Both the position numbers and the translations under genes were made by a program. Below the pieces are notes generated by a model. It ran no database searches and was not told the origin of the DNA. It saw nothing but the letters and a program-made list of their open reading frames with translations. 38,076 nucleotides of DNA from Nanobdellota archaeon (GTDB lineage: Archaea > Nanobdellota > Nanobdellia > Woesearchaeales > GW2011-AR9), in contig JAHJDQ010000150.1 in the NCBI GenBank assembly GCA_018812355.1, positions 1 through 38,076 of the forward strand. The letters are read 5' to 3'. This document shows positions 2,736 to 21,934 of this stretch, piece after piece. Numbering within the stretch: position 1 is the first letter of the stretch; each line of letters begins with the position of its first letter.

Positions 2736-2767
2736 GTTTAAGATATATCTGTTAAACTATCTAAATG

Positions 2768-2777
2768 TTTATATATA
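2768..2777 (+). promoter_or_regulatory. TATA-box-like element upstream of the DsbA-cupredoxin gene
   Basis: tttatatata lies about 40 nt upstream of the ATG at 2813, which has the RBS GAGGGTGA 5-6 nt upstream. The ORF-track ATG at 2765 lies against or within this box. Confidence 0.45.
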
Positions 2778-2812
2778 ATTTCTGGGAAAAATACAGGAAG
2801 AGGGTGATATTT

Positions 2813-4375
2813 ATGGAACAAAAACAAATTGATGAAATTGAAGGTTCTTACAAGGGTGAAGAGTTTATTGATGAAGAGGATTTACTCAATCACGGTATTG
2901 AGTTGGATGAGGTCAAAATCGAACCAGCCAAAGCTAAACGCGGTCGGCCTAAGAAATCTTCTAAAACGGTAGATATGAAAGCTGAAGAGCCAAAAGAAGA
3001 AATGACAGACAATTTTGATGAAGTTAAAGTAGTCCCAATTACAGAAGAACCGAAACCAGATCCAGCGAAAGAGCCTACTCCTGGTCCAGCTTATAATCCT
3101 TGGGATGATGAAGAGGAGAAAACTTCTAGTGGATCATCTACCTGGAAAGCGATTAGTGGAATTTTAGTCATTTTGCTGATTATTTCTATTTTTACGCAAG
3201 GATTTAACTTTGCTGATGGTGCGGGAGTAACCGGAGCAGCAACTGCAGAATTATCATTATCAGAAGCAGAAGAGCAAGCTCTGACTTATGTCAACACAAA
3301 CTTACTTCAACCGCCTTTTACTGCCGAATTAGAAAGTTCAGAAGATGTTGGTAGCATGTACAAAATTACTTTATCTGTTGCCGGCCAAGAAATTGATTCT
3401 TATTTAACAAAAGACGGCGAATTATTTTTCCCGCAGGGTTTTGATACCAGTGAAAGTTTAGACGACTTAACTGCTCCAACTACTGAAACAACTAGACTTG
3501 ACGTTTCCACAGATGACGATGCTGTCAAAGGAAATCCTGACGCTACCGTTACAATAGTGGAATTTAGCGAATTTCAATGTCCTTTCTGTGCAAAATTTTT
3601 CCAAGAAACTTATCCTTTGATTATCAAAAACTATGTCGATACTGGAAAAGTCAACTATGTTTTTAGAGACTTTCCTTTAGACTTTCATCAAAATGCCCAA
3701 AAAGCAGCAGAAGCCGCTGAATGTGCTGGTGAACAAGACAAGTATTACGAAATGCACGACTATTTATTCACAAACCAAGATTATCTGGAAGTTGAAAATT
3801 TAAAAGGTTATGCTAAAGATTTAGGATTAGATACTACTGAATTTAATGATTGTTTAGATAGCGGAGAGATGGAAGATGAAGTAAAAGCTGATCTAGCGGA
3901 AGGTAAGACTTACGGCGTTTCTGGTACTCCTGCTTTCTTTATTAATGGTAAGATGATTAGTGGAGCTCAACCTTACTCTGTTTTCACTACAGAAATTGAA
4001 GCAGCTTTAGCTGAAGATAATTCTGAATCCGTTGTTGAAGGAAATCTTGAAGAAGCACAGGAAGAAGTTACCGAAGAATTAGAAGAACCAGAAGTTGTCA
4101 TTCCCTCCGGTAAAACACAAGAGTTTACTGTTAATGCCAAACGTTGGTTGTTTAGTCCGAACGAATTTACGGTTAATAAGGGCGATACGGTTAAACTAAC
4201 TATTACAGCAAGCGATTTAGCCTTTACTTTTGCTGTTCCTGATTTAGGAGTTAGCGAAGAAGTTTCCGGTACAACCATAGTTGAGTTTACCGCTAGTCAA
4301 GCCGGCTCATTTGAATTTAAATGTGCTAGCTGTGAAGCCTGGCGAGGAATGACCGGAACTTTGGTTGTGGAATAG
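2813..4375 (+). CDS. membrane-anchored DsbA-like thiol:disulfide oxidoreductase fused to a C-terminal cupredoxin-like domain
   Basis: Start moved to MEQKQ (RBS-supported). Acidic/basic N-tail with an AT-hook-like KRGRPKK, one TM helix (ISGILVILLIISIF), a DsbA domain with CPFC, and a C-terminal beta-sandwich ending FKCASCEAWRGMTGTLVVE. The last resembles the domains in 19076-20509 and 32832-33251. Confidence 0.75.
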   Translation: MEQKQIDEIEGSYKGEEFIDEEDLLNHGIELDEVKIEPAKAKRGRPKKSSKTVDMKAEEPKEEMTDNFDEVKVVPITEEPKPDPAKEPTPGPAYNPWDDEEEKTSSGSSTWKAISGILVILLIISIFTQGFNFADGAGVTGAATAELSLSEAEEQALTYVNTNLLQPPFTAELESSEDVGSMYKITLSVAGQEIDSYLTKDGELFFPQGFDTSESLDDLTAPTTETTRLDVSTDDDAVKGNPDATVTIVEFSEFQCPFCAKFFQETYPLIIKNYVDTGKVNYVFRDFPLDFHQNAQKAAEAAECAGEQDKYYEMHDYLFTNQDYLEVENLKGYAKDLGLDTTEFNDCLDSGEMEDEVKADLAEGKTYGVSGTPAFFINGKMISGAQPYSVFTTEIEAALAEDNSESVVEGNLEEAQEEVTEELEEPEVVIPSGKTQEFTVNAKRWLFSPNEFTVNKGDTVKLTITASDLAFTFAVPDLGVSEEVSGTTIVEFTASQAGSFEFKCASCEAWRGMTGTLVVE

Positions 4376-4385
4376 ATATACGCTA

Positions 4386-4507
4386 AATTAGTGGGCGCCC
4401 TTCGGTGAGTAGCCTTTACTAAATGTGCGATCTGTAAGCCGAGGATGGCGAATAACGCCATGATGACCGAGGCGCAGTAGGGTGGTTCACCCTGGCCCCC
4501 ACTAATT
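4386..4507 (+). ncRNA. unclassified structured RNA, copy A (core 4388-4505, 118 nt)
   Basis: GC-rich island in an AT-rich spacer. Terminal stem TTAGTGGGCGCC/GGCCCCCACTAA; hairpins ATGGCG-AATAA-CGCCAT and AGGGTG-GTT-CACCCT. A paralogous copy at 9619-9735 carries compensatory changes. Confidence 0.6.
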
Positions 4508-4573
4508 ACAGTTAATTTAATACGTCCAAATAAGGGAAACCTTTTTAATTCCCTTTCTTTTTCTTTTCTTATT

Positions 4574-5095
4574 ATGAAGCAGAAAAAAAAAGAACGGTTG
4601 ACGAAAACTTTAATGATTGCTTTCTTACTATTGGTAGCATTAGGCTTTATGGTGCCTGGATTTCTTGATTTGGGAGATGAACAACAACAATATGTTGAAC
4701 CACGTATTTGTCAGGCAGATGCTGATTGTTATTTGATGTGCGGTGAGAATAGTGATGAACCAGTAACAGTTTTTTGTAACAGTAATCTCTGCCAACAAAA
4801 TGCTTGTAATCAAGATTCTTCTTTTCCTTACCAAGCTGAACCACTTACTTTCGAATTAACTATCTCCGGCTTGAATCAATCATTGAGTGTTAACGATATT
4901 TTTATTAAAAGTAACCGTAATCAAGTTCAAGTTTATACTTCTGGCTTATCTTTAGACGGTATTTTAAAAAAATATAACTATAATTTTCCTGCTAAAATGA
5001 ATTTAAGCATTAACGGCGATGAATCTGGTTATTATGGCAGTTATGTTCCCCAAGAAGGGGATCAGATTAAGATTACTATTGAATCCATCAACTAA
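4574..5095 (+). CDS. hypothetical membrane-anchored Cys-rich protein
   Basis: 173 aa. N-terminal TM helix, then six Cys within about 35 residues (CQADADCYLMCGE...FCNSNLCQQNAC). No family recognised. Confidence 0.55.
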   Translation: MKQKKKERLTKTLMIAFLLLVALGFMVPGFLDLGDEQQQYVEPRICQADADCYLMCGENSDEPVTVFCNSNLCQQNACNQDSSFPYQAEPLTFELTISGLNQSLSVNDIFIKSNRNQVQVYTSGLSLDGILKKYNYNFPAKMNLSINGDESGYYGSYVPQEGDQIKITIESIN

Positions 5096-5149
5096 ATCTT
5101 TATAAATTTCTTCTTATCAATCATTAACTTATTATCAATAAACCCCTGA

Positions 5150-7096
5150 TTGAAGATGAGTAAAACACTTACTGAGAAAATAATTAAGAACCATCTGGTT
5201 GCCGGAAGCTTACAACAAGGCACAGAAGTTGCTTTAAGAATTGACCAAACTTTAACCCAAGATGCTACTGGAACGATGGCTTGTTTACAGTTTGAAGCCC
5301 TTGGCCTAGACAAAGTTAAAACTAAACTTTCGGTGAGTTATGTTGACCATAATACTCTTCAAACCAGTTCTGAGAATGCTGACGATCACCAATTCTTACA
5401 AACTTTTGCGGCTAAGTATGGGATTCAATTTTCTAAACCAGGAAATGGGATTTGCCATCAAGTACATCTGGAGAGATTTGCTCTACCTGGAGAAACTTTA
5501 CTTGGATCGGATAGTCATACTCCTACTGCTGGCGGTTTAGGCGTCTTAGCGATTGGCGCTGGCGGTTTAGATGTTGCTGTCGCGATGGCCGGCGGTGCGT
5601 TCCATTTAACTATGCCCAAAATTTTTGGAGTAAAATTAAACGGAAGATTAAATCCTTGGATTTCTGCTAAAGACGTTATTCTTGAACTTTTAGGAAAATT
5701 AGGAGTTGATGGTGGTGTGGGAAAAATATTTGAGTATTTTGGCGAAGGGGTAAAAACTTTAACTGTTCCGGAAAGAGCAACAATCACCAATATGGGCGCA
5801 GAATTAGGGGCAACAAGTTCAATCTTTCCAAGTGACCACATTACAAAAAAATTTATGGCAAGTCAGAACCGAGCAGAGTATTGGCAAGAGTTAAGTGCTG
5901 CTGAGGATGCTGTCTATGATCAAGTGATTGAAATTGATTTAAATAATATCGAACCAATGCTTGCTCAACCGCACAGTCCTGGAAATGTTTGTAAAGTAAC
6001 CGCAGTTGCCGGTTTAAAAATAAATCAGGTTTGTCTAGGTTCCTGCACCAATTCTTCTTACCAAGATTTGATGATTGTTGCCAAAACTCTTCAAGGCAAG
6101 AAAGTTTCTCCCGGAGTCAGTTTAGTTATTTCTCCCGGTTCAAAGCAAGTTTATGAAAGTATTGTTCAGAACGGAGCTTTAAACGATTTGATTAAAGCAG
6201 GAGCAAGAATTTTAGAATGTGCTTGTGGTCCCTGTATTGGGATGGGTCAAGCTCCCAACACTAATGCTATTTCTTTAAGAACATTTAACCGAAATTTTTA
6301 TGGACGGTCAGGGACTAATTCTGCCCAAATTTATTTGGTTAGTCCAGAAACGGCGGTTGCTTCTGCTCTTTATGGAGTTATTACTGACCCTCGTCAATTA
6401 GGAGAATCTCCCCCGATTAATACTCCAGAAACTTTTATTTTTAGTGACAGTTTACTTTTGCTTCCCGCAGAAAATCCTGCTGAAGTGGAGATTATCCGTG
6501 GTCCTAATATTAAACCTTTACCCTTAAATAAATCTTTGTCTAATCATCTGTTGGGAGAAGTGTTACTAAAAGTTGAAGATGATATCACTACTGATCATAT
6601 TATGCCGGCTGGTGCAAAAATCTTGCCTTTAAGAAGTAACATTCCGGCAATTAGTGAGTATGTTTTTGAGCGTGTTGATCCAGAATTTGTTCTTCGAGCG
6701 AAAGCGAAAAATGGCGGGTTTATTATTGGGGGAGAAAATTATGGCCAAGGCTCCAGTCGAGAACATGCTGCTTTAGCTCCGATGTATTTAGGGATTAAAG
6801 CAATCATTGCTAAAAGTTTTGCTCGTATCCATCGTGCTAATTTAATTAATTTTGGAATTTTACCTCTGGAATTTTTAGACAAAAATGATTACACTAGGAT
6901 TGAGCAAGGAGATCAGATCGAATTAGTTAATGTCCGAGAATTACTTGAACAAAAAAATAGTTTATTAGAAGTTAAAAATAAAACGCAAGGGATTACATTT
7001 AAAGTTAAACATAATTTAAGTGATCGATTAATAATGATCATCCTAGCCGGAGGGCTGTTAAACTACATTAAAAGAGGTGAAAAAAATGAACTTTGA
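5150..7096 (+). CDS. aconitate hydratase (about 650-aa fused large+small aconitase/IPM-isomerase type)
   Basis: Aconitase-family Fe-S ligand motifs GSCTNSS and CGPCIGMG, a swivel domain with [14 protein letters not shown], and an adjacent icd. Confidence 0.85.
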
Positions 7097-8330
7097 TTTT
7101 CTTCAGATTCCTGAAGCAGGAGAAAAAATTACCATGAGTGATGGTAAATTAATTGTTCCGTCTAATCCTTTGATTGGATTGATTATTGGCGATGGTATTG
7201 GTCCTGATATTAGTAGGGTGGGACAAAAAGTGATTGATGCTGCTGTTAAAAAAGCCTACACCAATCAAAGAAAAATTGTTTGGTGTGAATTGCCTGCAGG
7301 AGAATCTGCTTTACAACAATATGACACTATTTTACCTGAAGATACGCTTACCTTTCTCCAGAATTATCTAGTAGCGATCAAAGGGCCTTTAACCACTCCA
7401 GTCGGGAGCGGCACCAGAAGTTTAAATGTAACTTTAAGACAGAAACTAGACTTATATTCTTGTGTCCGTCCGGTAAAATATTTTCCGGGAGTACCTAGCC
7501 CAATGGTCTCTCCACAAAAATTAGATGTTATTATTTTTCGAGAGAATACAGAAGACCTTTACATGGGCATTGAGTGGAAAGAAGGAACTTTAGCTGCCCA
7601 AAAAATAATTTCTTTCTTAAAAACAGAGATGGGAGTAACGATTAGAGCAGATTCTGGCGTCGGCATAAAACCGATTAGTAAATTTGCTACCCAACGGTTG
7701 GTTAAATCTGCAATTGAGTATGCCCTCAAAAATAATCGCCGCTCGCTAACTTTAGTTCATAAAGGTAATATCATGAAATTTACTGAAGGTGCTTTTAAAG
7801 AATGGGGTTATGAAATTGCTCGGGAATATCCAGAATTAATTACGGAAGAAGAATTGTATCACAAGTATAATGGAACAGTCCCTGCTGGAAAAATTATCCT
7901 TAAAGACCGCATTGCTGATTCTATGTTCCAACAATTACTGTTGCGCCCAGAAGAATATGACCTTCTTGTCGCACCAAATCTTAATGGAGATTATCTTTCT
8001 GATGCCTGCGCGGCCCAAGTTGGCGGCTTAGGGATTGCTCCTGGAGCGAACATTAATTATGAAAGTGGTCATGCTTTGTTCGAAGCTACGCATGGCTCAG
8101 CGCCAAAATATACTGGGATGGATAAAGTCAATCCTGGTTCATTTATTTTATCTGGAGTAATGATGTTAGACTATTTGGGTTGGCATGAGGCAGCTCAATT
8201 AATTGTTAAAAGTTTTAGCACAATCATAACCCAAAAGACAGTAACCTACGATTTAGCACGCCAGATGGCCGGAGCAAAATTGTTAAAATGTTCAGAGTTT
8301 GGCGAAGCAATTATAAATAATATGTCTTGA
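7086..8330 (+). CDS. icd: isocitrate dehydrogenase (NADP-type, prokaryotic homodimeric family)
   Basis: [28 protein letters not shown] and [10 protein letters not shown] motifs. The ATG at 7086 sits 5 nt after the RBS AGAGGTGA; the track start at 7077 is a GTG inside that RBS. Confidence 0.9.
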
Positions 8331-8352
8331 TTATAATGTTGGAGGTAAATTT

Positions 8353-9609
8353 GTGATTTTAAATAAAACAATTATTCATTTCAGAAAAAAAATTGCTGGA
8401 CTGGCTGGCTTAAATGAAACAGAAATACAACTCTTGCTGACACCAAACCACATTCATAAAGCAGAACTAGAAGTTAATGGTAAAACTTATCCTGCTTTTA
8501 GGGTTCAACATAATAATGCCAGAGGACCGTATAAAGGCGGGATTAGATTTCATCCCCAAGTTAATGAAGATGAAGTTAAAGCCTTAGCCTTCTGGATGTC
8601 TTTAAAGACGGCCGTTGCTGATCTTCCTTTAGGTGGAAGTAAAGGTGGCGTTACTGTAAATCCTAAAGAATTACCTATTGAAGAATTAGAAGAGTTAAGT
8701 CGATCTTATATCCGCGCTTTTTATCAACATTTAGGTTCAGCTCAAGATATTCCTGCTCCTGACGTTTATACTACTCCTCAGATAATGAGCTGGATGCTTG
8801 ATGAGTACGAAAAGTTAACTGGTAAAAAAGATCCGGGAATGATTACTGGTAAACCATTAGAAAACGGTGGTTCTTTAGTTAGAGATATTGCTACTGCTCT
8901 TGGTGGAGTTTATGTTTTAGAAGAAGCAATCCAAAAATTATCTTTATCAGGAAAAAGAGTTGCCATTCAGGGTTTTGGCAATGCCGGAATGAATATAGCT
9001 AAACTACTTTTTGACCAAGGCTACAAAATTTTAGCCGTTTCTGATTCAAAAGGTGGCGTTTATAATGAAAAAGGCTTAGATCCTTATCAAGCGGAAAACA
9101 TTAAGAAAGCAGGAGGTCTATTAGGTTGTTATTGTTTAGGTAGTGTTTGTTCAATTAAAGATGTTCCTTCTGAGGGTTTCTGTCGTGGAATTACTAATGA
9201 AGAATTATTGGAATTACCGGTAGACATTTTAATTCCTTCTGCTTTAAGTAATCAAATTACTGTTGAAAATGCTGCTAACATCAAAGCAAAAATCATTTTA
9301 GAATTAGCTAACGGTCCGACCACTCCTGAAGCTGATCAAATTTTGCACACAAATAATATTTTAGTACTGCCCGATATCCTCGCCAATGCTGGCGGAGTTA
9401 CCGTTTCTTGTTTTGAATGGCAGCAGAATCTTGCCAACGAAAAATGGGATGAACAAACAATTAAACAAAAGTTAAAAGATAAATTAGTGACAGCTTTTAA
9501 TCAAATCTGGACTGAGTATGATCAGAACGAACACGATTTCCGAACCAATACTTACATCTTAGCGATAAAAAAGATTCTCGCTGCAGAGAAGTTAAAAGGC
9601 AGATTATAG
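8353..9609 (+). CDS. gdhA: glutamate dehydrogenase
   Basis: GDH signature KGGIRFHPQVNEDEVKALAFWMSLKTAVADLPLGGSKGG and Rossmann GFGNAG. GTG start 6 nt after GGAGGT. Confidence 0.9.
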   Translation: MILNKTIIHFRKKIAGLAGLNETEIQLLLTPNHIHKAELEVNGKTYPAFRVQHNNARGPYKGGIRFHPQVNEDEVKALAFWMSLKTAVADLPLGGSKGGVTVNPKELPIEELEELSRSYIRAFYQHLGSAQDIPAPDVYTTPQIMSWMLDEYEKLTGKKDPGMITGKPLENGGSLVRDIATALGGVYVLEEAIQKLSLSGKRVAIQGFGNAGMNIAKLLFDQGYKILAVSDSKGGVYNEKGLDPYQAENIKKAGGLLGCYCLGSVCSIKDVPSEGFCRGITNEELLELPVDILIPSALSNQITVENAANIKAKIILELANGPTTPEADQILHTNNILVLPDILANAGGVTVSCFEWQQNLANEKWDEQTIKQKLKDKLVTAFNQIWTEYDQNEHDFRTNTYILAIKKILAAEKLKGRL

Positions 9610-9618
9610 AATGTATTA

Positions 9619-9735
9619 AGTTAGTGGGTGCCCTTTTGTGAGTAGCTTTTTCTAATTGAGCGAAATGTAAGCCGAGGATCGTGAAACGATAATAACCGAG
9701 GCGCAGAAGAAATTTCACTCTGGCCCCCACTAACT
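9619..9735 (+). ncRNA. unclassified structured RNA, copy B (core 9621-9733, 113 nt)
   Basis: Same blocks as copy A: TTAGTGGG, GTGAGTAGC, TGTAAGCCGAGGAT, ACCGAGGCGCAG, CTGGCCCCCACTAA. Its hairpin ATCGT-GAA-ACGAT replaces ATGGCG-AATAA-CGCCAT. Confidence 0.6.
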
Positions 9736-9807
9736 AAGAAATTTAATCACAAATTTAAGGAAAAGTTTATTTACTTTTTCTTTTTTTATTTACTTTGGTG
9801 GTTTAAA

Positions 9808-10260
9808 ATGAAAAAAATGTTATTACTATTTGTTTTAGTTCTAGCTGTTTTTTTAGTTGGTTGTAAAACTATAGTTGAAGAAGCGATGGAACAACAAATT
9901 GAAGCAGAATCAGGTGGCAATGCCGATGTTGATTTTGATGATGGTTCGATGCACATTGAAACTGATGAGGGTGAAGTAGATATAGAATATTCTGGAACTA
10001 ATAATGGTGAGTGGTGTCAAGAGGGAGCAGAATGGAAAATGACTGCTAATACTGATGAAGGTGCTACTAATGCCCAATGGATGATTGAAGGATTAATCAA
10101 TTCAGGTGAATACTTCGGACTATGTCATGTTGTTTATACTGCTGAAGGACCTGAAGGAGAAGAAGCCAGAATGGACTACTATTTCAGTGAAGACGGAGAA
10201 ACGGGCTACTTTGAAATGAACATTGATGGTCAAGTGTTTAAGCAGGAATGGAATAGATAA
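9808..10260 (+). CDS. hypothetical acidic lipoprotein
   Basis: Signal peptide with lipobox LVGC, then a strongly acidic mature part. RBS GGTGGT 5 nt upstream. Confidence 0.55.
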   Translation: MKKMLLLFVLVLAVFLVGCKTIVEEAMEQQIEAESGGNADVDFDDGSMHIETDEGEVDIEYSGTNNGEWCQEGAEWKMTANTDEGATNAQWMIEGLINSGEYFGLCHVVYTAEGPEGEEARMDYYFSEDGETGYFEMNIDGQVFKQEWNR

Positions 10261-14922: not shown

Positions 14923-17124
14923 TTATAACTTTTTCCTTTTTAACAACAACGAATTAGTAATCACTGATACCGAACTTAAAGCCATCGCCCCGCCAGCGAT
15001 TACTGGATTAAGTAACCAACCTGTCCAGGGATATAAAACACCAGCGGCAATTGGTATTCCCAGTGAATTATAAAACAAGGCCCAGAACATATTCTGGCGA
15101 ATTTTACTCATCGTCATCTTACTTAACTTAATTGCTTTCGGAACATCTAAAAGATTATTCCGCATTAAAACCACATTACCTGTTTCCATTGCTACGTCCG
15201 TACCAGAACCCATGGCAATCCCAATATCAGCCTGTGCTAAAGCAGGAGCATCATTAATTCCATCTCCGACCATCGCTACTTTACCATCTTTCTGTAATCT
15301 TTTAACATACTTTACTTTATCTTCCGGAAGAACTTCCGCAAAATAATTCTTTATTCCTGCTTTTTTGGCAATCGCGGCAGCAGTTCTTTTATTATCTCCT
15401 GTAATCATGTAAACTTTAACACCTAACTCCTGCAATTTCTTAATGGCAAGAGGGGAGTCCGATTTAATTTCATCAGCTACAGCAATCACACCTAACACTT
15501 TCTTGCCTTCTGCCAGAATCATTGTTGTCTTTCCTTCACTTTCTAACTTAGAGATCTTTCCAGAGAAAGCAGCTAAACTCACTTTCTGTTCTTCCATTAA
15601 TCTTAAGTTTCCTAAATAATATTCTTTCTTTCCTAATTTTGCTTTTACTCCTCTTCCTGTTAAAGCTTTAAATCCATTAACTTTCTTCCAACTAACTTTC
15701 TTAGCTTGTGCTTTCTTAACAATCGCTTCCGCTTAAGGATGTTCAGAACTTTTTTCCATACTTCCAGCAATCTCTAACAACTTCTTCTCCGTAATTCCTT
15801 TTCCAACAACTAAATCGGTCACTTCCGGCTCGCCTTTAGTGATTGTTCCTGTTTTATCAAAGACCACATACTTCAATTTATGCGCAGTTTCTAACGCTTC
15901 TCCACCTTTAATTAAAATACCGTGCTTAGCTCCCTTACCCGTACCTACCATAATTGCTGTTGGCGTAGCAAGACCTAAAGCACAAGGACAAGCAATCACT
16001 AACACAGCAACAGCAGCAATAATTGCAAAGCCTACTTCTGCATGGAATAAAGAGAACCACACTGTAAATGTAATTAAAGCAATAAAAATTACGATGGGAA
16101 CGAAGTAAGCAGAAACATTATCTGCAAACCTTTGGATTGGCGCTTTTTTTGTCTGCGCATCTTCAATTAATTTAATGATTCTAGAAAGTGTCGTCTCACT
16201 ACCAACTTTTGTTGCTTTAAATTTAAAACTGCCTTGTTTGTTAATCGTCGAACCAATAACTAAATCCTTCTTGCCCTTCTCGACCGGAATACTCTCACCA
16301 GTAACAAGAGATTCATCTATCGTTGAATGACCTTCTGTAATCACACCATCAACAGGAATTTTCTCTCCGGGCTTAACAATAACAATATCATCTTTTTTAA
16401 CATCGTCAATGGGAATTTTAATTTCTTTACCGTTTCTAACTACAAGAGCAGTTTTTGCACCCATCTTCATTAACTTAGAGATTGCTTCTGAGGTTTTTCC
16501 TTTCGCCACCGCTTCCAAATACTTACCAAAAATAACTAAAGTAATCAAAACAGCAGAAGCTTCAAAATACTGATGTCCTTTAGCCGCAAATAAAACAACA
16601 TAAACAGAATAGAAATACGCTGCACTAGTACCCATGGCAATTAACGTATCCATATTAGAAGTTTTATTCTTTAAAGCAGCCCATGCCCCCTGATAAAATT
16701 GTCTTCCTACATAAAATTGGACTGGTGTTGCTAATGCCCACATAATATACTCTTGAAAAGGGATTGGATTCTTCATAAAAAACATTCCCAAAATAAAAGC
16801 AGGCACTCCAAAAATAGCACTCAGAATAACTTTAAATCTTAATCTTTTCAACTCTACTTTCTTTTTCTTCTCTTCTAGTGTAATCCCATGTCCCGCATGA
16901 TGTCCATGCTCTTTAATAATATGACCACCATAACCTTTTTTCTTAATCAACTCTAACAATTGATTTTCATTAGTTTGTTTTTCATCAAACTCAATCGCTG
17001 CTTTTTCTGTCGAGAAATTAACATTAGCAGTCTTGACTCCGACTTGTTTTTTCAAAGCTCGATCAATGATCGTTACGCAACTCTGGCAGTGCATTCCCGT
17101 AATATTAATCGTTGTTTTTTTCAT
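14923..17124 (-). pseudogene. copA: copper-translocating P1B-type ATPase interrupted by one in-frame TAA
   Basis: ORFs 15733-17124 and 14923-15597 are in the same frame. HMA domain GMHCQSC, CPC, DKTGT, then SEHP-TAA-AEAIV where SEHPL is expected. GDGINDAP lies in the downstream part, and the 135 nt between the two track ORFs also translate in frame as ATPase-like sequence. Confidence 0.85.
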
Positions 17125-20546: not shown

Positions 20547-20750
20547 TTATTCTACTTTGTAGCCCTCCTTTTTGATTGCTTGCTTAATCTTTTCAGCAGT
20601 AATCTTTTTCTCATCAAACTCAATCACTGCTTTTCCGGATTTGGCATCGATCTTACTTTTCTTAACACCTAAATCTTCCAAGGCATCTGCAATCAACATT
20701 GCACAACTATTACAGTGCATCCCTTTAATCTTTAAGTTTATTTCAGCCAT
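20547..20750 (-). CDS. copZ: copper chaperone, HMA domain
   Basis: MAEINLKIKGMHCNSC. Start moved to the ATG at 20750, behind the RBS GAGAGG. The track start at 20780 overlaps the upstream gene. Confidence 0.85.
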   Translation of the reverse strand: MAEINLKIKGMHCNSCAMLIADALEDLGVKKSKIDAKSGKAVIEFDEKKITAEKIKQAIKKEGYKVE

Positions 20751-20760
20751 GTTTTTCCTC

Positions 20761-21648
20761 TCAATTAAGTTCTGCTTCAATCACTTGCGCAAACGCTGCG
20801 AAAGGTTGTGCACCAGAGATTAGTTTACCATTAACAATAAATCCCGGAGTTCCACTAATTCCTGCTCTTTGTCCGTCAGAAAAGTCTTTTCGAACTTCTC
20901 CTGCCATTGCTCCTGAATCTAAACAAGTGTTAAATTCAGCAGTATCTAAACCAATACTCGCAGCATAACTTTTGAAAGCAGTTACTCCTCCACTAACACC
21001 ATTCTCAAACAACTTATCATGCATTTCAAAATATTTGTCTTGCTCACCAGCACATTCAGCGGCTTCTGCTGCTTTTTGGGCATTTTGATGGAAACTTAAC
21101 GGGAAGTCTCGATAAATTAATTTAACCTTACCAGTCTCAATATACTCAGATCTTAATTGTTGTAAAGTGCCACTATAAAATTTTTCACAGAATGGACATT
21201 CATAATCACTCCACTCTACTATTGTTACGGGCGCATCTTCATCTCCTTCAATTGCATCGTCATCAATTAAAGCTTCCATGTCTACGGCTGCTGCTGCTGC
21301 GCTCGGCGCATTATCTACTCCTGTCGGCAAATCGCCATCATCTGTATTAACGACAACACTTCCATCAGGAAGTTTCACAGCAATGAATAACAACAAAGCA
21401 ATCTGCACAATTACTGCAGCTGCTAAAAATTTCTGAAAACTGTTTAAACCTTTATCCGAACAACATTCTTTTTTCTCAGCAACCCGATGATGTGGTTTAT
21501 GGTGTTCTGGCTTGTGTTTTTTTCCTTCATGATATTCATGAATTTTTTGCTCATGTGGTTTGTGTTCTTTATGTTCTGGAACATGATGTCCCTTATCTTC
21601 AGAGGGCTTATGCTCATGTTCGCCTCCTTCTTTTTCAAAATGTGTCAT
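20761..21648 (-). CDS. membrane-anchored DsbA-like oxidoreductase with a His-rich N-terminal tail
   Basis: About 65-aa His/Lys/Glu-rich tail (HEHKPSEDKGHHVPEHKEHKPHEQKIHEYHEGKKHKPEHHKPHH) plus a CC pair, one TM helix, and a DsbA domain with CPFC. Paralogue of 2813-4375. Confidence 0.8.
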   Translation of the reverse strand: MTHFEKEGGEHEHKPSEDKGHHVPEHKEHKPHEQKIHEYHEGKKHKPEHHKPHHRVAEKKECCSDKGLNSFQKFLAAAVIVQIALLLFIAVKLPDGSVVVNTDDGDLPTGVDNAPSAAAAAVDMEALIDDDAIEGDEDAPVTIVEWSDYECPFCEKFYSGTLQQLRSEYIETGKVKLIYRDFPLSFHQNAQKAAEAAECAGEQDKYFEMHDKLFENGVSGGVTAFKSYAASIGLDTAEFNTCLDSGAMAGEVRKDFSDGQRAGISGTPGFIVNGKLISGAQPFAAFAQVIEAELN

Positions 21649-21712: not shown

Positions 21713-21934
21713 TTAATTGATTATTTTTTGCATCATCACTTTGTAACCTTCTTCCTCAATTCCATCTCTAATTCTGTTTGGAGTTAAATGTCTATCATCA
21801 AAGTCCACTCTTACTATGCCCTTATCTTTATCTGCTTTACTTTTCTTAACTCCTAAATCTTCCAAAGCATCACTAATTAATATTTCACAACTATGGCAAT
21901 GGATGCCATCAACCCTAAATATTGCAGTTTTCAT
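21713..21934 (-). CDS. second HMA-domain metallochaperone
   Basis: MKTAIFRVDGIHCHSC, with the ferredoxin-like HMA length (73 aa). Confidence 0.85.
   Translation of the reverse strand: MKTAIFRVDGIHCHSCEILISDALEDLGVKKSKADKDKGIVRVDFDDRHLTPNRIRDGIEEEGYKVMMQKIIN

Follow-up and report, generated by a model that had tools for sequence, protein, structure and literature searches.

A candidate MITE-like family of structured intergenic elements with filled and empty sites in Woesearchaeota

Introduction

Hairpins of the REPIN/REP type, which are moved by RAYT transposases, can act as stabilisers of mRNA 3′ ends, and the bacterial ERIC/IRU, Correia (Neisseria), RUP and BOX elements are transcribed in flanking mRNAs as long hairpins that alter stability or processing. 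DPANN genomes are tiny; to our knowledge, they contain few regulators that can be recognised, and hardly any of their non-coding RNAs (ncRNAs) have been described or mobile elements characterised. Here we describe a structured intergenic element that occurs twice, as copies A and B, in contig JAHJDQ010000150.1 of a Nanobdellota archaeon (Woesearchaeales; assembly GCA_018812355.1); the whole of this 38,076-nt stretch is referred to below as the window. [quoted passage not shown]

Prokaryotic MITEs range from 50 to 800 bp and are without coding capacity, and among archaea a woesearchaeal genome ranks with those densest in MITEs (PMC11602168). Pyrobaculum calidifontis carries MITE-like elements with cores resembling C/D box small RNAs (sRNAs), and it was proposed that these elements make small RNA modules mobile (Lui et al. 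2018, PMC6009581). Recombination sites of the attC type, including those of archaeal clusters of attC sites lacking integrases (CALINs), have been reported in Nanoarchaeota (Ghaly et al. 2022, PMC9668308). The element described here is like ERIC/IRU, Correia, RUP and BOX in its general build, being non-coding, of a comparable length (~100–150 bp in those families), bounded by imperfect terminal inverted repeats and located between genes near gene ends.

Copies and distribution

The two copies in the window lie on the same strand:

4386..4507, + strand: copy A, structured core (covariance model R1, minimum free energy (MFE) folding, 80.3% identity to copy B)
9619..9735, + strand: copy B, structured core from the 5′ arm to the 3′ arm of the terminal helix P1 (covariance model R1, MFE folding, alignment A4)

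End to end, 94 of 117 aligned bases were the same in the curated MAFFT alignment A4 (80.3%), in agreement with the 75–80% that an earlier note, written from the letters of the window, had estimated by eye. The coordinates in that note coincide precisely with the outermost pairs of the terminal helix. The nhmmer E-values of the two copies were 1e-40 to 1e-42, and the covariance model R1, built from three copies, scored copy B at 139.7 bits and copy A at 128.2 bits. The cores have a G + C content of 0.54 (A) and 0.45 (B) in a window of 0.346. Pattern, repeat and covariance-model searches of the 38-kb window revealed no other copy. Where it is covered, the window has the same gene order and gene sizes as the 15-kb contig JAHJKR010000150.1 of another metagenome-assembled genome (MAG; GCA_018822045.1), both copies included, and it is also matched by a Logan assembly.

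A third copy was found in another lineage, L121 (= L123 and L128; later L185–L188), with 82.3% identity to A and 84.1% to B on a contig of 30% G + C content. The three distinct copies are thus roughly equidistant, with pairwise identities of 80–84%. AspRS and dph5 homologues placed both element-bearing lineages in Woesearchaeota/Nanoarchaeia. The L121 contig, CAZXEM010000013.1, is deposited within a MAG named ‘uncultured Methanosarcinales archaeon’; its dph5 and csp genes have their best matches (80–100%) in Woesearchaeota contigs, and its G + C content is 30%. By these sequence features, the contig probably stems from a DPANN archaeon and was binned wrongly.

Scans with the invariant core TAAGCCGAGG-N8-30-CCGAGGCGCAG over 185,579 species-representative genomes and 241 M JGI metagenome records recovered one true homologue lineage (L121), the remaining matches being chance hits in GC-rich DNA. 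Two pattern scans of viral contigs likewise gave chance GC-rich matches only, phage and plasmid collections yielded no match by distant blastn, and nhmmer over 173 fetched loci returned nothing new. Covariance model R1 found no further copy in ~440 kb of Woesearchaeota loci from several genomes, and none in ~400 kb of relatives. At the sensitivity of an exact core the element is therefore rare, being present in two lineages among hundreds of thousands of genomes, with two copies counted in the 38-kb window and one in ~20 kb of L185.

The family is not in Rfam, and it is undescribed as far as our searches reached. In kind it would be a new family among the structured MITE-like intergenic repeats.

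Conserved fold and covariation

Each copy folds alone to the same closed, irregular hairpin on the + strand, with an MFE of −49 kcal/mol for A (z −3.13) and −36.9 kcal/mol for B (z −3.24), and the + strand gives a slightly better fold than the − strand. For the three sequences together, RNAalifold gave 36 pairs, identical to the structure derived by hand. The structure comprises P1, with 13 pairs and a conserved pyrimidine–pyrimidine mismatch; P2, with six pairs; P2b, with seven pairs; an unpaired 5′ stretch of 17 nt at columns 36–52; and an apical module consisting of GCC/GGC, a tandem G·A/A·G loop, GG/CC, a 5-nt 3′ bulge and a 5-bp hairpin. The parts of copy B are as follows:

9619..9632, + strand: P1 5′ arm, AGUUAGUGGG-U-GCC, pairing with 9722–9735 (pair table, 13 pairs)
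9637..9642, + strand: P2 5′ strand UGUGAG, pairing with 9714–9719 UUCACU (helix 2)
9647..9653, + strand: P2b 5′ strand UUUUUCU, pairing with 9705–9711 AGAAGAA (helix 3)
9666..9706, + strand: core module with invariant UGUAAGCCGAGGAU at 9666–9679 and ACCGAGGCGCAG at 9695–9706 (helices 4 and 5)
within 9666..9706, + strand: covarying 5-bp hairpin, 9678–9682 with 9686–9690, beside the 5-nt 3′ bulge
9722..9735, + strand: P1 3′ arm, GGC-C-CCCACUAACU, with the mismatch at columns 11/112 (pair table)

The longest invariant runs of the alignment, UGUAAGCCGAGGAU (14 columns) and ACCGAGGCGCAG (12 columns), make up the tandem-G·A module.

Across the three copies, standard pairs filled 97.2% of the cells, and six of the 36 pairs showed compensatory changes on both sides. 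Column shuffles were 92.5% paired with 2.0 ± 1.1 compensatory pairs, and none of 500 shuffles reached either observed value; sliding the 3′ partners as a further control left 35–49% of cells paired and 0–2 compensatory pairs. The structure is under selection across the three copies. The view of the earlier note that the two window copies differ in structure-preserving ways thus agrees with the independent third copy and with both controls.

Between A and B, seven pairs differ, comprising five double compensatory changes, one single change (U·G to U-A) and one broken pair (G-C to U·U). The outer pair of P1 covaries from A-U to G-C, and in L121 one G-C pair of P1 was lost on both strands at once. 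The outer pair of P2 is G-C in A, A-U in L121 and U·U in B. Compensatory pairs occur in P2b (columns 29–35 with 91–97) at columns 29/97 and 33/93, as C-G to U-A and A-U to U-A, and in the apical helix at columns 62/74 and 64/72. The change from AUGGCG/CGCCAU to AUCGU/ACGAU that had been noticed in hairpin 1 resolves into two fully compensated pairs (G-C to C-G and C-G to U-A), and the change from AA/UU to AG/CU in the extension of the outer helix was confirmed.

The reading of C9→T and C16→T as changes that keep pairing through G-U wobbles did not hold, since in the best-supported structure the first position (column 11) faces C112, changing from C·C to U·C, and the second (column 18) lies in an internal loop. 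The conclusion about strand that had been drawn from them stands: seven G·U cells occur in four different pairs, with no A·C cells, and this count, together with the slightly better folding of the + strand, favours a fold that is read from the + strand.

Filled and empty sites

The nearest relative of the window lineage, L135–L138 (AspRS 85% identical), has the same gene order as the window, namely the DsbA/cupredoxin gene, a small protein, ..., gdh, a small protein and aspS. Both stop codons upstream of the copies fall at orthologous residues in this relative, and the right-hand spacers of the window and L136 can be aligned as far as the ATG. Neither spacer of the relative holds the element, the gdh spacer being only 51 nt long, and folding of the empty A site in L136 gave no sign of a structured element (z = 0.07). 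The orthologous stops and alignable right-hand spacers indicate that A and B are pieces of ~150 nt set between a stop codon and the native promoter-proximal spacer. By the same comparison, the T-rich DNA 3′ of the copies is homologous to the empty-site spacer and is therefore host DNA, not part of the element.

A second and cleaner comparison was provided by the third copy. In L185–L188, the contigs that carry the identical csp, the csp–dph5 spacer is 285 nt long and contains the element, whereas a sister lineage whose csp has one substitution has an identical 123-nt spacer without it in ten places (L176 and L189–L197). Synteny between the two extends over ~12 kb, from a DEAD helicase gene to an ABC transporter gene, and the flanking genes are 83–96% identical at the nucleotide level. 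Alignment of L185 with L189 revealed an indel of ~150 nt with an 8-bp direct repeat, ACTTTTTA, on both sides of the filled site and one such repeat at the empty site. The AATTTAAT tail lies within the indel and is therefore part of the element. Empty orthologous sites were thus found in the closest relatives at all three loci, and this absence argues for an insertion-type, probably mobile element rather than a stably inherited RNA gene.

From these comparisons, the inserted unit measures ~145–150 nt and consists of a 5′ flank of 7–9 nt, a core of 113–122 nt and an A/U-rich tail of ~20 nt with the box AAUUUAAU, its ends being written TGTAT...ATACA / TTAGTGGG. The flanking parts in the window are:

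4376..4385, + strand: copy A 5′ flank, between the TAG at 4373–4375 and P1
4508..4532, + strand: copy A 3′ tail, with the box AAUUUAAU at 4514–4521
4542..4571, + strand: native T-rich tract 3′ of copy A, outside the insertion (L136 spacer homology)
9610..9618, + strand: copy B 5′ flank AAUGUAUUA, directly after the gdh TAG (sequence comparison)
9736..9759, + strand: copy B 3′ tail, with the box AAUUUAAU at 9740–9747 (right flank homologous to the L136 empty site)
9766..9797, + strand: native T-rich tract (T5, T7) 3′ of copy B, outside the insertion (L136 spacer homology)

After copy A the native spacer homologous to L136 resumes at ~4533 (AAGGGAAAC), and after copy B at ~9758–9760 (GGAAAAG). 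The 5′ flank of copy B is common to the L121 copy (AUGUAUC) and partly repeats the 3′ tail in inverted form, and the AAUUUAAU box is invariant in all three copies. Extended folds paired flank with tail over 7 bp in L121, four in B and three in A, in each copy differently, and the outermost pairing ATGTAT/ATACAT is clear only in L121 and partly present in B. An additional helix P0 between the 5′ flank and the AAUUUAAU tail was not adopted, being good in L121, partial in B and absent in A. The unit has no coding capacity, all frames being closed by stops (TAG/TAA in TTAGTG, GAGTAG and TGTAAG), so that a conserved small open reading frame (ORF) was rejected as well.

Genomic context

Copy A follows the DsbA-cupredoxin gene and copy B follows gdh, and the two bracket acn-icd-gdh, as the earlier note had stated. 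Its other observations on the surroundings of the window copies were also borne out. The copies start at near-equal offsets after a TAG (10 nt for A, 9 nt for B), and a TATA-like box, AATTTAAT, follows each core 6 nt (A) or 4 nt (B) on, at 4514–4521 and 9740–9747. After each copy there then stands a gene for a small protein whose translation shows an N-terminal signal or lipobox. The third copy has a different setting, ~100 nt after the cold-shock gene csp, behind T8/T8/T6 runs, and ~70 nt before dph5, which encodes the cytoplasmic diphthine synthase. The family thus does not obey a suggested rule that the element always follows stop codons or always precedes secreted-protein genes. Both small-protein genes have orthologues in the nearest relative (55% and 47% amino acid identity), and no element stands upstream of these.

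Known families tested

Rfam gave no match at the gathering threshold in the window and seven related loci; around both copies at E ≤ 10, all matches were below half the gathering score, the best reaching 21.9 of 55 bits with a human long non-coding RNA model. ARAGORN called no tRNA or tmRNA. 5S rRNA, signal recognition particle RNA and RNase P RNA were rejected on the lack of an Rfam signal and on the 20% difference between copies in one genome.

C/D box sRNAs need C (RUGAUGA) and D (CUGA) boxes and a kink-turn (K-turn) near the terminal stem; of the three copies A alone has AUGAUGA, B having AUAAUAA and L121 AUAAUGA, and no CUGA is conserved. H/ACA sRNAs are marked by an ACA or ANA box that adjoins the lower stem on its 3′ side and by an upper stem containing a K-turn or K-loop; directly 3′ of P1 the copies read ACAG (A), AAGA (B) and AAUC (L121), so that no ACA box is kept. 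The tandem G·A pairs do not form a K-turn: they lie in a symmetric 2 × 2 loop that has no 3-nt bulge beside it, and there is no conservation of the 5-nt bulge. The shapes of group II intron domain V, the bulge–helix–bulge motif and retrons do not fit. A template/variable repeat pair of a diversity-generating retroelement was also rejected, given differences that are not specific to adenine, the intergenic position of both copies and the lack of a reverse transcriptase (RT).

As to cis-acting signals, a riboswitch or leader was rejected in view of the unrelated downstream genes (a membrane/secreted protein, a lipoprotein and dph5), the first two of which have orthologues without the element. 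A bacterial-type scan called no intrinsic terminator beside either copy, P1 being followed by AAUUUAAU and not by oligo-U, and T-tracts begin only 30–40 nt 3′ of the copies, in native DNA. A terminator-like hairpin proposed after each copy was not called either and would lie in native DNA common to the empty site.

Nature of the element and alternatives

As criteria for MITEs we used terminal inverted repeats of at least 10–15 bp and a target-site duplication of 2–10 bp. The non-coding unit of ~145–150 nt falls in the MITE size range, the 14-nt arms of P1 form 13 pairs in all copies and serve as terminal inverted repeats, and insertion polymorphism is seen as filled and empty sites at three of three loci. 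What is observed is a set of two homologous copies in the window and one elsewhere, which evolve in a structure-preserving manner with a strand bias, vary in presence and absence, and at one site are flanked by an 8-bp repeat. We infer that the mobility is by transposition, and that transcription, a role at the RNA level and a protein partner complete the picture as follows.

Each window copy would have landed with a stop codon on one side and, on the other, the native promoter-proximal spacer that leads to the next gene. The gene orientation of the copies, together with the lack of oligo-T between stop and core, makes it most likely that they are transcribed as the 3′ UTR of the upstream operon. 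The + strand RNA would fold to the conserved hairpin, and transcripts would end at the native T-tracts 30–60 nt further on; the tract at 9766–9797, which belongs to the promoter-proximal spacer of the gene at 9808–10260, is the likely 3′ end region of read-through transcripts. The invariant tandem G·A internal loop, beside the covarying hairpin and bulge, would most plausibly be a protein-binding module. The host effect would likely be a stable 3′-end cap or a processing site on the upstream mRNA, and the mobile element may be tolerated or favoured for what its transcript does. The P2b 5′ strand of copy B (9647–9653) holds a T5 run (CTTTTTC) where copy A has CTTTAC. A T5 run can be a weak terminator in archaea, so read-through of B may be less efficient than that of A.

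Several points weigh against this interpretation. The 38-kb window, made up of ordinary chromosomal genes, has no transposase, integrase or RT, and the loci covered here offered no autonomous partner whose ends match. Only one site shows a clear direct repeat, the flanks at A and B being only loosely similar (AATAGA/AATAAGG and TTATAGAA/TTTAAGGAA), and in T-rich DNA a repeat of 8 bp could also be the trace of a deletion mediated by microhomology. In L121 strong T-runs precede the element, which makes co-transcription with the upstream gene doubtful there. The covariation comes from few events, only three distinct copies being known. Finally, it is the interior that is conserved best and that covaries, a pattern more in line with a functional RNA than with purely selfish DNA; a DDE-type MITE need not keep its interior folded. 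An insertion-like distribution combined with a folded, covarying interior nevertheless leads to a combined reading, a mobile element kept for its transcript.

The conserved interior could instead indicate a host-beneficial ncRNA family that is no transposon at all, acting as an sRNA in trans, as a protein-binding RNA or in cis as a 3′ UTR or leader, its patchiness due to loss and occasional horizontal transfer. We regard this as possible but somewhat unlikely. It would account for the strongest conservation being internal, in invariant blocks of 14 and 12 nt around the tandem G·A loop, for the covarying helices between these blocks and for the wobbles specific to the + strand. A GC-rich core in a genome of 35% G + C content is also typical of structured RNAs in AT-rich archaea, and the identity between lineages (82–84%) is as high as that within the genome (80%), suggesting purifying selection. 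However, there is no room for a B recognition element and TATA box, with 7–9 nt before the stem and TATA-like boxes on both sides ~10 nt from P1. The three genomic contexts are unrelated, Rfam has no match, and a role as leader of the downstream genes fails on the orthologues without the element. The clean absence in sisters with 83–96% identical flanking genes is likewise hard to fit with strong selection.

Mobility and RNA function could also be combined more closely, in a new class of mobile functional RNA genes of DPANN that insert at the 3′ ends of transcription units, perhaps via an RNA intermediate, an idea that we consider distinctly unlikely. Such spread through RNA, in the manner of short interspersed nuclear elements, would be in keeping with the structured core, the A/U-rich tail and a flanking duplication of at least 8 bp. 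On this view the fold would be selected at the RNA level for a protein-binding or catalytic core at the invariant GCCGAGG/CCGAGGC tandem-G·A module, and the RNA gene would pass between Woesearchaeota lineages.

Selection might act on folded DNA, if the element were a single-stranded hairpin site of a recombinase or HUH enzyme (attC-like, CALIN, solo attC, REPIN or IS200/605). This is highly improbable, although the imperfect palindrome has an attC-like length, stands right after ORFs in gene orientation and has a conserved mismatch and bulges, and although folded single-stranded DNA also tolerates G·T wobbles. Canonical attC sites read 5′-RYYYAAC...GTTRRRY-3′. The order of the R-box-like sequences here is inverted on either strand (5′-GTTAGTG...CACTAAC-3′), and this order speaks against attC, as does the lack of a cassette array and of a recombinase domain in the window, which has neither a tyrosine recombinase nor a Y1 transposase. 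The DNA between the copies carries four housekeeping genes (a 173-aa gene, acn, icd and gdh) with syntenic ends, and the inserted unit of L185 has no ORF. An 8-bp repeat flanks the L185 copy, whereas IS200/605 and REPIN insertions make none, and no GTAG-headed REP doublet is present. Integrons and CALINs do occur in Nanoarchaeota/DPANN, and attC sites are more alike within a genome (PMC9668308).

That A and B are the direct-repeat ends of a mobile, duplicated or acquired 5.1-kb acn-icd-gdh segment is scarcely tenable: they do bracket 4508–9618 in the same orientation, and a relative has a malic enzyme and an M16 peptidase in place of acn and icd, but the genes just inside the copies (the 173-aa gene and gdh), like those outside them (the dsbA-cupredoxin gene, a 150-aa gene and aspS), are orthologous and collinear in the relative without copies, so that the variable block is not bounded by the copies, which moreover are only 80% identical, and the third copy stands alone at an unrelated locus.

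Other observations

A further insertion-like, GC-rich hairpin lies at L174 9672–9767 (+); it is closed by a stem of 12 bp (GTATACTAAAGC/GCTTTAGTATAC), has a three-way junction and folds with an MFE of −38.5 kcal/mol (z −5.6). Within it, CCGAGG precedes a hairpin with a 5-nt GAUGU 3′ bulge, and TAATAAATTTAAT comes after the element, which is missing from the syntenic spacers of L177 and L179. As a homologue of the present family it was rejected, with 7 bits from covariance model R1 (E ~0.1 in a 251-nt search), and it is an analogy only. By that analogy, the ‘CCGAGG-hairpin-GAUGN bulge’ and the AAAUUUAAU tail hint at a wider superfamily.

Upstream of dph5, a conserved element of ~105 nt is present in three Woesearchaeota lineages, at L174 ~9815–9925, L177 ~9897–10000 and L179 ~3800–3910 (+). 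It has a closing stem CTAGAYAGAAT...ATTCTRYCTAG and a core GGAAGTTTGACTGTCCCCGAAGGACAAACCAATTGG, no Rfam match, and a − strand that folds somewhat better, and is a candidate for an undescribed ncRNA.

In the window, a heavy-metal P-type ATPase is split into ORFs at 14923–15597 and 15733–17124 (−), 135 nt apart, one of which encodes an HMA + E1-E2_ATPase part of 463 aa and the other a HAD hydrolase part of 224 aa, and L135 has an intact 730-aa gene at this place; the split could be a pseudogene, a frameshift, an assembly error or a genuinely split gene. At 5150–8330 the window has acn and icd where L136 has malic enzyme and M16 peptidase genes (5128–7793), a local swap in central metabolism between close DPANN relatives. 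An 83-nt direct repeat of 78% identity (20653–20735 and 21837–21919) surrounds a DsbA-like gene at 20761–21648, and an inverted match of 75–80% between 3512–3768 and 21008–21264 joins the thioredoxin/DsbA domains of the paralogues at 2765–4375 and 20761–21648. A comparison of Na/Ca exchangers between lineages matched paralogues, with 28% identity.

Significance

A small element that is kept in an RNA-type fold yet has transposon-like turnover offers a handle on how 3′ UTR structures are acquired, and its filled and empty sites in sister populations record an insertion that happened naturally and can be dated. Should the core bind a protein or act in trans, it would represent a rare horizontally mobile RNA function in archaea; if the element is purely selfish, it is one more MITE family, of use mainly for annotation and strain typing.

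Comparison with known systems

Like attC sites, the copies are imperfect palindromes within 55–140 bp that lie directly 3′ of ORFs in gene orientation (PMC9668308), with strand-specific folding, mismatches and bulges. They differ from attC in the inverted order of the R-box-like sequences and in having no integrase, no array of short cassettes and no ORF in the unit.

REPINs resemble the element as hairpins of ~100 nt after genes in which compensatory changes keep the hairpin. They are, however, bacterial, reach tens to hundreds of copies and insert without target duplications, and here there is neither a GTAG-headed doublet nor a RAYT gene in view.

With the ERIC/IRU, Correia, RUP and BOX elements, the family also shares presence/absence polymorphism between close relatives and, with Correia in particular, promoter-like boxes near the ends. 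The element here differs in being archaeal (DPANN), of apparently very low copy number and with no partner transposase known. Its hairpin is asymmetric and multi-looped, with a covarying inner module that is better conserved than the termini, and the flanking repeat is 8 bp long, compared with TA in Correia.

Compared with the Pyrobaculum elements, the present family has no conserved C/D boxes and a core twice as large (PMC6009581). Those elements number 15 copies in one genome and lie far from genes, whereas the window copies abut stop codons (PMC6009581). The two have in common an archaeal, small-RNA-like core, imperfect inverted repeats and occurrence in one lineage but not in its close relatives (PMC6009581).

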